A DNA stretch of 64,000 nucleotides, taken from Escherichia coli (GTDB taxonomy: Bacteria; Pseudomonadota; Gammaproteobacteria; Enterobacterales; Enterobacteriaceae). A model generated the notes under the pieces. That model had not been told where the DNA came from and did not search any database. It saw nothing but the letters and a program-made list of their open reading frames with translations. Below are positions 16,592 to 41,301 of this stretch, piece by piece (positions within the stretch are counted from its first letter, which is position 1; each line of letters opens with the position of its first letter). The translations under genes and the position numbers were made by a program. The DNA is taken from NCBI RefSeq assembly GCF_017348835.2, contig NZ_CP071375.1, one strand, 5' to 3'.

Positions 16592-16804
16592 CCAGTGCGC
16601 CCGGTTTATCCCCGCTGGCGCGGGGAACACTGCAGGTTTTTAGGGATAGTCACTGCAATACGCGGTTTATCCCCGCTGGCGCGGGGAACACGCAAGCCGC
16701 CCATTTGACGGTCACGCCAGTTACCGGTTTATCCCCGCTGGCGCGGGGAACACCCGGGATAGCCGATAACGATGGCGGCTCTGGGCGGTTTATCCCCGCT
16801 GGCG
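16592..16804 (-). CRISPR. CRISPR array 1 (cas-adjacent): 4 identical 29-bp repeats, 3 spacers
   Basis: Repeat CGGTTTATCCCCGCTGGCGCGGGGAACAC at 16592, 16653, 16715 and 16776. Spacers (plus strand): tgcaggtttttagggatagtcactgcaatacg (32), gcaagccgcccatttgacggtcacgccagttac (33), ccgggatagccgataacgatggcggctctggg (32). crRNA would be read from the minus strand. Confidence 0.92.
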
Positions 16805-16910
16805 CGGGGAACACACTAAGCATACATATCTGTTTTTAAACAAATTTATTCCACATCAACAATCTACCAACTAAATTCAAACATTTCCTTATTTTTAAAG
16901 AACACATAAC
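16805..16910 (-). promoter_or_regulatory. AT-rich CRISPR leader for array 1
   Basis: AT-rich ~105 bp between the cas2 remnant stop and the first repeat; shares caatctaccaac with the leader of the second array. Confidence 0.6.
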
Positions 16911-17241
16911 CTATTGATTATCAACAGGAAGAAAAGAAACCAAACGTAACCCATCCAAATCCACCGGAATACGTCTGTTTTCTCCCCAGGTCTGAAATTC
17001 AAAACCCGACTCGGTATTGGTCGCCCAGGCCATCACCACATTTCCGCAACCAGCCAGTTGGGTAATTTGCTGCCAGATCATCTCCCGAATACGTTTTGAT
17101 GTATCACCAACATACACACCGGCACGCACTTCCAGTAACCGTCGTACTACGCCGCAGACTGGCACGTTCGCCGCGTTTCTCCTGCAATTCCTCATGCCAT
17201 TTGCGCAGCGTGGCTTTGTGCTCCTCTTTTACAATACTCAT
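16911..17241 (-). pseudogene. Deletion remnant: cse2 (casB) first ~27 codons fused out of frame to the last ~75 codons of cas2
   Basis: ATG at 17241-17239 overlaps the cse1 stop and reads [27 protein letters not shown] in a frame that terminates ~18 codons later ([45 protein letters not shown]). A different frame from about 17140 down to 16911 encodes the recognisable Cas2 C-terminal region [12 protein letters not shown]...[18 protein letters not shown]...[13 protein letters not shown]. Confidence 0.8.
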
Positions 17242-18806
17242 TCAGCAGCCTCCTGCTTTTTCTCCCTGGCGGCTTTAGCACTTTGCTTCTCCGCCGATGT
17301 TGTAAAATATTTCTTGCGCGCGGTCATGACGCGTTCCAAATCAACGGGCTCATAAGGATTGGTGAATACACGCTCGTCAAAATCCTGACGTGCGAATAAC
17401 CAAATTTCCTTTTGCCATTTGCCGAGTAATTCATCCGCATCCTGACCTTCTTCAATTTGGCGCACTAACCTCAGGAAGCGATGCTGAGTTTTGTTCCAGA
17501 AGTCGATATCCACAAAACTGAAATCACCCCTTGCACCTTTTGGATCGGAGAACCATGCTTCTTTCAATGCACTCCGTAACAGACTCAGAATCCGTGAAGC
17601 CGTTTGCGCAGCCAGCCGCAGCTTCGGTATCTGGCCTTCTTTTTTATTGAGCAATAGAGGGAAATGGTGTTCGTACCAACAGCGAACCTTCATATCTTCG
17701 AAATCATAACCAAATCCCCACAAGCCTATTTTTGTCTGCTTTAGATTGCTGGCATTGAAAAGCTTCACTACCTGTGCGGGGAGTTCAGTATTGTTTTTTG
17801 ATTTACCTTCCTCTATGAGGCCTAACCAGTCGCGCCAGATTAAACCACCTGGTTGTGGTTTAACTGAGTAAAACTCTCCTCCCTCTTTAAGCGGCATACG
17901 GTAAGGTGTTAGAGGATGCCTCCACATGACGTATTGCACCCCATTGTTTTTAAGTGCCATCAAGCTCAATAGAGCGCCGCTCTGACTACCGCAAATATCG
18001 CAGTTGCCAATTGAGGTTGTCTTAAAATCAATACGAATACGCCGAGGCATTCCCCAGTAGGCCTGAAGTTTATTGACTTGTTCATCGGTTATCACAGCAC
18101 CATCCAGTTCACTGGTACGCGTCGGTGCAAGCCAGGGAAAGACCAGGTCATCAAAGGTTTTTGGTAAAGGTAAATCGGCTTCATCCTGTGGCATTACGTT
18201 AAGCCACAGCTTGCGCCACAAAGGGGGTTGTGGATTGCCCTGATACTCCAGCAATTCTATAAGTGTGGTCAGCGGCCCCCCGCCACGTAACCCCGGATAG
18301 TAACCGCGTCCACCTTTGGGAGCATTCAGCTGGATTGAAAAAAGTGCTAAAGGCACACAATGCAGGCATATATGCTGAATTGTATCTCGCTTAATAAAAT
18401 GGTCTTTATTTCGTTCTTTTGTTTGTTTTCCTGGTATGTCAGGAAGAAGCGAAGCAATAGAACTAACCTTAACTCTTAATTCTTCGAAATCCTGCATAAA
18501 TGAAGGTGAATCTGGCCCGAACTGGAAAGCATGTTCTAATAACAGCAATGCTTCCCGTAGCTTTTCGGCTTCCAGTCCGTCTTCCCAGATATCATCCCAA
18601 CGACGATGATCTTTTGGCGCGAAGCTGGTTTGTAGTAACCCCAGCAAAAACTGCCAGGCCGCCCCCTGGAGATCTGCCCGCGGCGCAGCGATATCGACAA
18701 CATTTTCATCCGCCAGATCGACTGGCGCCAGTTTGCCTGTCGTTCCGTCTTTAAAACGAACGGGCAACCACGGGGTTGTCAGAAGTGAAAACGAGTTCAT
18801 ACGCAT
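17238..18806 (-). CDS. cse1: Type I-E Cascade large subunit Cse1 (CasA), apparently intact
   Basis: About 520 aa from MRMNSFSLLTTPWLPVR; GLRGGGPLTTL motif; directly downstream of cas3. The ORF-track start at 18860 is an upstream extension. Confidence 0.85.
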   Translation of the reverse strand: MRMNSFSLLTTPWLPVRFKDGTTGKLAPVDLADENVVDIAAPRADLQGAAWQFLLGLLQTSFAPKDHRRWDDIWEDGLEAEKLREALLLLEHAFQFGPDSPSFMQDFEELRVKVSSIASLLPDIPGKQTKERNKDHFIKRDTIQHICLHCVPLALFSIQLNAPKGGRGYYPGLRGGGPLTTLIELLEYQGNPQPPLWRKLWLNVMPQDEADLPLPKTFDDLVFPWLAPTRTSELDGAVITDEQVNKLQAYWGMPRRIRIDFKTTSIGNCDICGSQSGALLSLMALKNNGVQYVMWRHPLTPYRMPLKEGGEFYSVKPQPGGLIWRDWLGLIEEGKSKNNTELPAQVVKLFNASNLKQTKIGLWGFGYDFEDMKVRCWYEHHFPLLLNKKEGQIPKLRLAAQTASRILSLLRSALKEAWFSDPKGARGDFSFVDIDFWNKTQHRFLRLVRQIEEGQDADELLGKWQKEIWLFARQDFDERVFTNPYEPVDLERVMTARKKYFTTSAEKQSAKAAREKKQEAAE

Positions 18807-18889
18807 CCTCTCGTAAAAAAGACCATCCAGGTCGGTTATCCATCCTTTTCGGTGTATCAACTATTCAGAGAGTCTCTGTCGCAGGCATC

Positions 18890-40329: not shown

Positions 40330-40376
40330 GTGAGGAAGACCGGGCGGGAAACTGCCCGGCCTGAACATACCTGAAT

Positions 40377-40500
40377 GGTTATCCCCGCTGACGCGGGGAA
40401 CATAAGTTCGACAACTTAAAAAATGATAACAAGTCCGGTTTATCCCCGCTGATGCTGGGAACATAATAAAAAATTTAACTAGTTCAGTTTATCCCTGTTT
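40377..40500 (-). CRISPR. Degenerate CRISPR remnant (array 2a): 2 recognisable degenerate repeats plus a partial third
   Basis: GGTT-ATCCCCGCTGACGCGGGGAACAT at ~40377-40403 and CGGTTTATCCCCGCTGATGCTGGGAACAT at 40436-40464, then GTTTATCCCTG; followed by an AT-rich stretch. Confidence 0.6.
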
Positions 40501-40966
40501 TTACAAGGAATATTAACTACACTCGATGTCTTTAGAATAAAAGACAATACGAATCGCACTTTATCAATTTACACTTAAAGTATGAACTGGATATCTTTAT
40601 TCATAAGAACTATTCATCAACAGCGTATAGAGGCGGTTATGTAAAACCACTCATTAGCCTCAAAACAAAGACAAATTTCCAGATTTATTACTTACTCAAT
40701 GAATAACAAGCTTAAAAAATACACTGTCATTCTAAAGAAAAAATTAACAGGCATTAATTAATATTAAAAAAATAATATATTAAAATTTCTTAACGGTTTA
40801 AGGATTATACAAATAACACTTTGATTAAATTTGATTTTTTGTATCGATAATTGTGAACTTATCTGGCATGGGGAACTATTTTGAACATAAGGTGTTACGT
40901 GGATATGTTGCTTATTACAAGTACTGCTAATATAAAAACTTGAGAAAGAGATAACGGGTTATATGG

Positions 40967-41301
40967 TGGTTTATCCCCGCTGGCGCGGGGAACTCGTACT
41001 GACGGATAAAAATAATATCTTTTGCGGCGGTTTATCCCCGCTGGCACGGGGAACTCGTAGGGAACGAGATTCAGAAACGCCGCCCGGTTCGGTTTATCCC
41101 CGCTGGCGCGGGGAACTCTGCCGAACCGCGTTTTGTATTTGCACGGTACTCGGTTTATCCCCGCTGGCGCGGGGAACTCCACTCTTCATCCTCCAAATCA
41201 GCAACCGCGTCCGGTTTATCCCCGCTGGCGCGGGGAACTCATGCGCCGCAGTGTTGCAAAAGAGTTACAGCACGGTTTATCCCCGCTGGCGCGGGGAACT
41301 C
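40967..41301 (-). CRISPR. CRISPR array 2b: 6 repeats of 29 bp, 5 spacers; leader on the high-coordinate side
   Basis: Repeat CGGTTTATCCCCGCTGGCGCGGGGAACTC at 40967, 41028, 41090, 41151, 41212, 41273. The first has T for C at position 1; the second has G to A (CTGGCACGGGG). Spacers: gtactgacggataaaaataatatcttttgcgg, gtagggaacgagattcagaaacgccgcccggtt, tgccgaaccgcgttttgtatttgcacggtact, cactcttcatcctccaaatcagcaaccgcgtc, atgcgccgcagtgttgcaaaagagttacagca. Confidence 0.92.

Follow-up and report, generated by a model that had tools for sequence, protein, structure and literature searches.

What remains of a CRISPR system when its arrays outlast most of the cas genes that serve them? The question is raised by a 64-kb stretch of Escherichia coli DNA, hereafter the window, which matches the chromosome of the pig strain E. 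coli PE164 (China) at 100% identity and E. coli F2_81 (pig, Australia) at 99.8-99.9%. The window holds three type I-E arrays together with the remnants of a cas operon, and these arrays very probably form a frozen, functionally orphaned memory whose spacers are a record of old phage encounters. An earlier reading of the window, made from the sequence only, had described three orphan arrays with two repeat variants and eight fossil spacers, and had raised the possibility of self-targets that selected for the loss of cas.

Arrays and their genomic setting

In the RefSeq annotation of the PE164 record, array 1 lies between iap and the cas genes, in the order iap-cas-cysH, with arrays 2a and 2b in the interval from ygcE to queE. 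The literature names these loci of E. coli CRISPR2.1, CRISPR2.2, and CRISPR2.3 (PMC3737337; PMC3903273). Arrays 1, 2a, and 2b are these three canonical type I-E arrays, respectively, and the strain carries the majority cas-E1 (O157-type) variant. The 29-nucleotide (nt) repeat CGGTTTATCCCCGCTGGCGCGGGGAACWC, by which membership of the E. coli CRISPR2 repeat family was defined, is present, and a pattern search of the window returned ten copies of the type I-E repeat with at most one mismatch, compared to 0.00 expected in shuffled sequence. The repeats recur with a period of 61-62 nt in every array and enclose unique spacers of 32 or 33 nt. The + strand carries the transcribed repeat in reverse complement, so that the - strand is the one on which the arrays are read, and the leaders of CRISPR2.1 and CRISPR2.3 are both found on the high-coordinate side, as the earlier reading had assumed.

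The earlier count of eight spacers stands for the canonical ones, while ten are present in all when the anchor spacer of CRISPR2.1 and the spacer of CRISPR2.2 are included. The term orphan also stands in part. It is apt functionally but not positionally for CRISPR2.1, which adjoins cas2', cse2', an intact cse1, and a cas3 interrupted by an insertion sequence (IS). CRISPR2.2 and CRISPR2.3 are 24 kb away from any cas gene, as is normal for these arrays throughout E. coli.

Loss of the cas operon

A complete cas3-cse1-cse2-cas7-cas5-cas6e-cas1-cas2 operon was not found at the locus. The missing part was mapped by aligning the window to the intact locus of the same variant in strain DSM 103246. 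Positions 16786-17137, which run from the leader-proximal repeat of CRISPR2.1 through the leader into cas2, were 100% identical to that strain, and positions 17133-21484 (cse2-cse1-cas3) were 97.6% identical. Approximately 3,864 bp are absent between the two aligned blocks, which overlap by 5 bp of microhomology at the junction (17133-17137). Lost with the deletion are codons 1-22 of cas2, the whole of cas1, cas6e, cas5, and cas7, and cse2 beyond codon 36, and the resulting cas2'/cse2' fusion is out of frame. The IS within cas3 belongs to the IS3 family and shows terminal repeats beginning TGAACCGCCCCGG, a 3-bp GTG target duplication, and an ALIL frameshift pseudoknot. Deletion or disruption of both adaptation and interference genes, as asserted before, is thus borne out by the 3.86-kb deletion and the IS in cas3.

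Of 5,426 complete E. coli genomes, only PE164 and F2_81 matched a 301-bp probe across the deletion junction over its whole length, whereas 2,728 contain the E1-type sequences flanking the junction. An assembly artefact was rejected, as two complete and independent assemblies, each from another continent, agree at the junction base for base. In F2_81 the deletion is present but the IS is not, and cas3 is complete at 899 amino acids (aa). Since F2_81 shares the deletion without the IS, the deletion came first and the IS insertion later, on the PE164 branch only.

In type I-E systems, Cas1-Cas2 integrate spacers, Cas6e cuts the precursor CRISPR RNA (pre-crRNA), Cse1, Cse2, Cas7, Cas5, and Cas6e make up Cascade, and Cas3 degrades the target. 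With no Cas1 and a truncated Cas2, no adaptation would take place in the strain; with no Cas6e, pre-crRNA would stay unprocessed and no CRISPR RNA (crRNA) would be produced; and with no Cas7, Cas5, and Cse2, there would be no Cascade and no interference. A second type I-E locus in the genome is unlikely, because E1-type cas2/cse2 occurs in a single copy in the chromosome and no cas gene was found on the plasmid pPE164. The positions of arrays, leaders, and cas remnants are given in Table 1.

Table 1. Positions of the CRISPR arrays, their leaders and spacers, and the cas remnants in the window. Spacers are labeled by array (A1, array 1; A2b, array 2b) and numbered from the newest.
Feature	Position	Strand	Description
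CRISPR2.1 trailer	16541..16601	-	Degenerate terminal repeat 16541-16569 (18/29 identical to consensus) and anchor spacer 16570-16601
CRISPR2.1 (array 1)	16602..16814	-	4 repeats, 3 spacers, from pattern and repeat search; repeat starts 16602, 16663, 16725, 16786
A1_s3	16631-16662		32 nt
A1_s2	16692-16724		33 nt
A1_s1	16754-16785		32 nt, newest
CRISPR2.1 leader	16815..16910	-	Type A / L1; identical to DSM 103246 leader, differs from K-12
cas2 remnant	16911..17137	-	C-terminal 75 codons
cse2/casB 5' remnant	17133..17241	-	36 codons
cse1/casA	17238..18800	-	Intact, 520 aa; 514/521 identical to DSM 103246
cas3, codon 36 to stop	18890..21484	-	Frame open over 865 codons, severed from start and promoter
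IS3-family element	21485..22794	+	IS629/IS1203-like, 1,310 bp, within cas3
cas3 5' fragment	22795..22902	-	First 35 codons; coordinates from alignment to L005
CRISPR2.2 (array 2a)	40375..40513	-	Two degenerate repeats, 40375-40403 (4 mismatches) and 40436-40464 (3 mismatches); one spacer, 40404-40435; vestigial third repeat, 40485-40513 (18/29)
CRISPR2.3 (array 2b)	40967..41301	-	6 repeats, 5 spacers; repeat starts 40967, 41028, 41090, 41151, 41212, 41273
A2b_s5	40996-41027		Oldest
A2b_s4	41057-41089		
A2b_s3	41119-41150		
A2b_s2	41180-41211		
A2b_s1	41241-41272		Newest
CRISPR2.3 leader	41302..41401	-	Nearly identical to K-12 CRISPR2.3 leader

A second copy of the IS found in cas3 is located at 58449-59758 of the window (99.8% identical). 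The only plasmid of PE164, pPE164, is of type IncFII and carries many frameshifted genes, espT, an autotransporter gene, and several copies of IS3-family elements. Among these are at least one transposase with the same protein accession as that of the IS in cas3 and a second IS3-family copy with the same pseudoknot. These copies suggest a recent IS expansion in PE164.

Spacer content and the sister genome

All three spacers of CRISPR2.1 and all five of CRISPR2.3 occur together only in PE164 and F2_81 among the 5,426 genomes, and both arrays are identical in spacer content between the two. Judging from this pair, no spacer appears to have been gained since PE164 and F2_81 diverged. The description of the spacers as fossils is upheld, as cas1 is gone and F2_81, the only near-identical genome, shares the deletion and agrees with PE164 spacer for spacer in both arrays.

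The oldest spacer of each array is also found elsewhere. A1_s3 occurs in TUM13936, a strain with a complete cas operon and 11 spacers, and A2b_s5 stands at the trailer end of the arrays of L26 and strain 48 (one mismatch in the latter), which are otherwise different and longer. Since the oldest spacers are common to other lineages and the rest are private, the PE164/F2_81 lineage gained at least two spacers in CRISPR2.1 and at least four in CRISPR2.3 after splitting from those lineages. The arrays were then frozen by the deletion.

The trailer of CRISPR2.1, consisting of the 32-nt anchor spacer and the degenerate repeat, is also present in K-12, TUM13936, and DSM 103246, and the anchor spacer occurs in 3,743 of the 5,426 complete genomes. 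Compared to TUM13936 (window 16602-16662 against L012 5300-6250), CRISPR2.1 is without the spacer TCAGCAACAATT... and without a last repeat carrying a CATCAG variant, both of which sit between A1_s3 and the anchor in TUM13936. K-12 has the same CATCAG-variant repeat beside its anchor. The absence of an old spacer and a variant last repeat that TUM13936 has kept indicates an internal repeat-to-repeat deletion at the trailer end of the array.

CRISPR2.2 had been described as reduced to degenerate repeats, and two such copies were indeed found, to which a third, vestigial repeat can be added. Its spacer is identical in K-12, L26, and strain 48.

In RefSeq, CRISPR2.1 is not annotated as CRISPR. 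The record instead lists a hypothetical protein, WP_404853007.1 (16650-16823, - strand), wholly within the array, and this is almost certainly a spurious open reading frame built of repeats and spacers. A correction of the annotation follows, with the array to be marked as CRISPR rather than as a hypothetical protein.

Spacer targets and adjacent motifs

For the target search, spacers were concatenated with runs of N between them and compared with three collections, namely INPHARED phages and PLSDB plasmids (both blastn, E<=10) and complete E. coli genomes (blastn, E<=5). Five of the eight canonical spacers matched phage genes, and each match had a 5' protospacer-adjacent motif (PAM) of AAG (two) or ATG (three). 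A2b_s2 matched a small gene of PHROG 4132 (unknown function) at 32/32 in phage D6 and D6-like phage-plasmids of ~90 kb, with an ATG PAM, and at 29/32 in phiV10, HK629, and other lambdoid relatives (ATG as read in phiV10). Among D6-like phage-plasmids, the 32/32 match was counted in 31 plasmid records of the E. coli genome set and in 30 PLSDB records. For A1_s3 the target was a P2-family prophage present in several E. coli chromosomes, whose major capsid gene it matched at 32/32 (AAG), and A2b_s5 matched the portal gene of the same prophage at 29/32 (ATG). A2b_s3 was assigned to a baseplate wedge gene of a prophage in STEC384 (29/32, ATG) and A2b_s1 to a baseplate gene (PHROG 2258) of a prophage in N1420 (30/32, AAG).

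An AWG directly 5' on the spacer-sense strand was thus present at all five protospacers, as the sequence-only reading had predicted, with a chance of 2/64 per protospacer. This supports the imperfect matches and confirms the orientation of the arrays. The observed AAG and ATG motifs agree with the CWT (=AWG) acquisition motif published for the O157-type system (cas-EO), for which CAT (=ATG) is the commonest natural PAM (PMC3737337).

The oldest spacers of two separate arrays, A1_s3 and A2b_s5, both match one P2-like prophage, in its capsid and portal genes, respectively. The two target genes lie in the prophage of E. coli 40EC (L009) at 1752-2744 and 5553-6581, with the protospacers 4 kb apart and on opposite strands, and copies of this prophage are present in at least seven unrelated genomes of the species. 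Primed adaptation was considered for this pair and set aside. The protospacers are on opposite strands and 4 kb apart, the two spacers recur in different lineages, and nothing specific supports priming.

The remaining spacers, A1_s1, A1_s2, and A2b_s4, returned nothing from IMG/VR when searched as patterns allowing any base at every sixth position. No target was found for A1_s1 in JGI metagenomes, nor for A1_s2 and a 26-nt pattern of A1_s1 in GTDB genomes. A 26-nt pattern of A2b_s4 matched one soil metagenome contig (L019), in a high-GC gene for a cyclic-nucleotide-binding regulator; the hit was regarded as chance, given this gene, the ATC flank, and a mismatch over the seven bases at the 3' end. 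Matches to mycobacteriophage and to Salmonella phage SPFM10 were dismissed as partial and of high E-value.

Cause of the loss

The targets bear on why the cas genes were lost. Self-targeting is a known general driver of cas loss, and the spacers target temperate elements that E. coli often carries, so that one or more spacers directed against the strain's own chromosome, prophages, or plasmid might have selected for the deletion through autoimmunity. No self-target beyond the arrays was detected, however. In the PE164 chromosome, spacer queries matched the arrays only, at the sensitivity of BLAST (megablast, one place per array query; blastn with E<=5, two places). On pPE164 (41,684 bp) and in the rest of the window, an exhaustive ungapped scan gave at best 19-22 identities out of 32-33, which is chance level. 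The self-targets proposed earlier as a cause of cas loss therefore found no support in the chromosome, the plasmid, or the rest of the window. Although a target may have been lost after the cas genes, autoimmunity is a very unlikely cause.

It is highly improbable, too, that losing Cascade and the adaptation genes was adaptive in a pig-associated lineage, lifting a barrier to P2-like prophages or D6-like phage-plasmids while cse1 and cas3 served a non-immune role. PE164 has none of the targeted elements and later lost cas3 to the IS, and nothing points to adaptive loss. The loss of cas most likely reflects neutral decay of a normally silenced system, not selection against self-targeting.

A third account starts from the genes left behind and holds that a non-immune function has preserved cse1, intact in PE164, and cas3, intact in F2_81, in a locus that is remodelled, not decaying; although cse1 is full length (514/521), cas3 is open over 865 codons apart from the IS, and F2_81 cas3 is complete, this is exceedingly improbable, since PE164 tolerates an IS in cas3, which is thus dispensable, and since a recent deletion would leave no time for further decay, so that intact neighbours are the null expectation.

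Repeat alleles and leaders

The four repeats of CRISPR2.1 are identical 29-nt copies of CGGTTTATCCCCGCTGGCGCGGGGAACAC, end in AACAC on the + strand, and are of the CRISPR-A type, with the transcribed form GTGTTCCCCGCGCCAGCGGGGATAAACCG. The repeats of CRISPR2.3 end in AACTC and are of the CRISPR-T type (transcribed GAGTTCC...), so that the two endings are as first described. CRISPR-A and CRISPR-T alleles with the consensus ...GGGGAACWC have been published for E. coli (Diez-Villasenor et al. 2013, PMC3737337). In that account, the CRISPR2.1 locus pairs type A repeats with leader-A and O157-type cas, and type T repeats with leader-T and K-12-type cas (PMC3737337), a pattern that the window follows, its CRISPR2.1 leader being that of DSM 103246 and its CRISPR2.3 leader almost that of K-12. 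K-12 shows the opposite allocation to the window, with T at CRISPR2.1 and A at CRISPR2.3, while its trailer repeats carry the same variants as those of the window. The allocation of the window is also found in other E1 strains, namely TUM13936 and DSM 103246 for CRISPR2.1 and L26 and strain 48 for CRISPR2.3. The two repeat variants are thus the species-wide alleles and no sign of decay in this lineage.

Two single-base changes noted earlier in CRISPR2.3, a G to A in the second repeat and a T in place of C at the first base of the leader-distal repeat, were exact, at the repeats starting at 41028 (..GGCACGGGG..) and 40967, respectively. The leader-distal T is ancestral, since it is common to K-12, L26, and strain 48. 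The G to A change is the sole repeat change private to the PE164/F2_81 lineage.

The difference between the A and T alleles falls on position 2 of the transcribed repeat (GUG vs GAG), outside the Cas6e hairpin. For both variants, a 7-bp stem with a 4-nt loop was predicted at -15.1 kcal/mol, a hairpin of the form recognised by Cas6e. The G to A change reads as C to U in the RNA and turns the loop-closing C-G pair into U-G. It is predicted to lower the stability to -12.8 kcal/mol, a cost of 2.3, with the stem kept.

Both leaders share the block CAATCTACCAAC, as had been pointed out. It occurs exactly twice in the window (16860-16871 and 41347-41358), at -46 to -57 from the first repeat in both leaders, and is also present in the CRISPR2.3 leader of K-12. 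Within that interval falls the integrase anchoring site, which has been placed at -50 to -53 of the E. coli leader (PMC5224486). The IHF consensus was matched in the leaders only with two mismatches, around -36 to -19. As arrays, leaders, and repeats are intact, the arrays would probably function again if a compatible cas operon were supplied.

The same integrity could be taken to mean that the arrays are still in use, with Cas proteins supplied in trans, either from another CRISPR-Cas system in the genome or from I-E genes on incoming elements. The leaders of CRISPR2.1 and CRISPR2.3 retain the -50 block and their repeats are intact, and in cas-positive strains CRISPR2.3 is always served from the iap-cysH cas operon 24 kb away, which makes service in trans ordinary for this system (PMC3903273). 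Against use in trans, E1-type cas2/cse2 occurs only once in the chromosome, pPE164 carries no cas genes, the E. coli I-F repeat is unrelated, and spacer content is unchanged between PE164 and F2_81. Cas6f is not known to process I-E repeats, which also counts against it. Use in trans is accordingly extremely unlikely.

Proposed history and its weight

The preferred explanation remains a frozen memory. While the system was intact, Cas1-Cas2 would have put spacers of 32-33 nt at the leader-proximal repeat of both arrays, drawn from temperate phages and phage-plasmids and picked beside AAG or ATG PAMs. One deletion of 3.86 kb, bounded by 5-bp microhomologies, would afterwards have taken out cas1, cas6e, cas5, and cas7 together with the cas2 5' end and the greater part of cse2. 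In PE164, cas3 would subsequently have been split by the IS3-family element, and the arrays would now be inert DNA recording past encounters.

Four points qualify this history. Three spacers (A1_s1, A1_s2, and A2b_s4) had no target in INPHARED, PLSDB, or the complete E. coli genomes. No second E1 cas2/cse2 copy was found in the PE164 chromosome, with I-F and E2-type genes not searched genome-wide. A consensus scan of both leaders for sigma-70 promoters and terminators was uninformative, and the lack of spacer gain rests on n=2 genomes, with one sister only.

Neighbouring loci

Beside cas3, the hok coding sequence is located at 23095-23247 (- strand). Positioned 4 bp upstream of the hok start, a 1,089-bp insertion (23252-24340) codes for a protein with an integrase core domain, intact in F2_81 but a pseudogene in PE164. 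A match to Rfam sok is found only beyond the insertion, at 24335-24484, so that hok is split from the mok/sok control region (locus 23095-24484). A full-length CsrB small RNA at 62360-62719 (- strand; Rfam RF00018, 382.9 bits) is unrelated to the arrays.

Relation to known systems and meaning

The window most closely resembles the published E. coli I-E arrays CRISPR2.1, CRISPR2.2, and CRISPR2.3 with cas-E1 (PMC3737337; Almendros 2014, PMC3903273). The loci are the same (iap-cysH and ygcE-queE), CRISPR-A with leader-A is found at CRISPR2.1 and CRISPR-T at CRISPR2.3, the CRISPR2.2 vestige is conserved, the hok/sok locus lies beside cas3, and the PAMs are CWT (=AWG). In contrast to the published cas-E1 loci, the window has the cas2-cse2 internal deletion, the IS in cas3, and short arrays of three and five spacers, and most of its spacers are private to two genomes.

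CRISPR I and II of K-12 MG1655 (cas-E2) provide a second comparison, with three arrays in the same positions, a nearly identical CRISPR2.2 unit and CRISPR2.3 leader, and the same trailer repeats. K-12 differs in its CRISPR2.1 leader and in having a complete but divergent cas set, and its only spacers in common with the window are the CRISPR2.2 spacer and the anchor.

Decay of the cas genes has precedents as well. The E1 and E2 variants and IS-driven decay of cas-E have been described in E. coli (PMC3903273), and BL21 is cited as non-functional for lack of a cas operon (PMC5224486). As in cas-less or disrupted E. coli and Shigella (BL21; the IS 'minor arrangements' in Fig. 5 of PMC3903273), arrays persist in the window and an IS is involved. 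Unlike those IS arrangements, the main event here is an operon-internal microhomology deletion and not IS-IS recombination, and cse1 and cas3 are left. The orphan CRISPR2 of Enterococcus faecalis (PMC5491264) is a similar case of an array kept without cognate cas genes in mobile-element-rich lineages, but it is of type II-A, belongs to another organism, and is usable when cas9 is supplied.

Every element of the locus has already been described for E. coli, the genome is public and annotated, and the finding is real but ordinary. What sets the window apart is a private set of spacers and a single rare deletion allele. The sequence-only reading was confirmed in each of its sequence statements and is largely right overall. 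It recognised the arrays, with their orientation and leaders, from raw sequence, and otherwise the finding matters little beyond bookkeeping. The spacer targets add a few data points on the temperate elements sampled by E. coli I-E systems. The spacer set is whole in only two of the 5,426 complete genomes and could mark a pig-associated clone for typing. For the species, the locus offers a clean worked example of the death of an E. coli I-E system, by a microhomology deletion and then an IS in cas3, with the arrays intact throughout.

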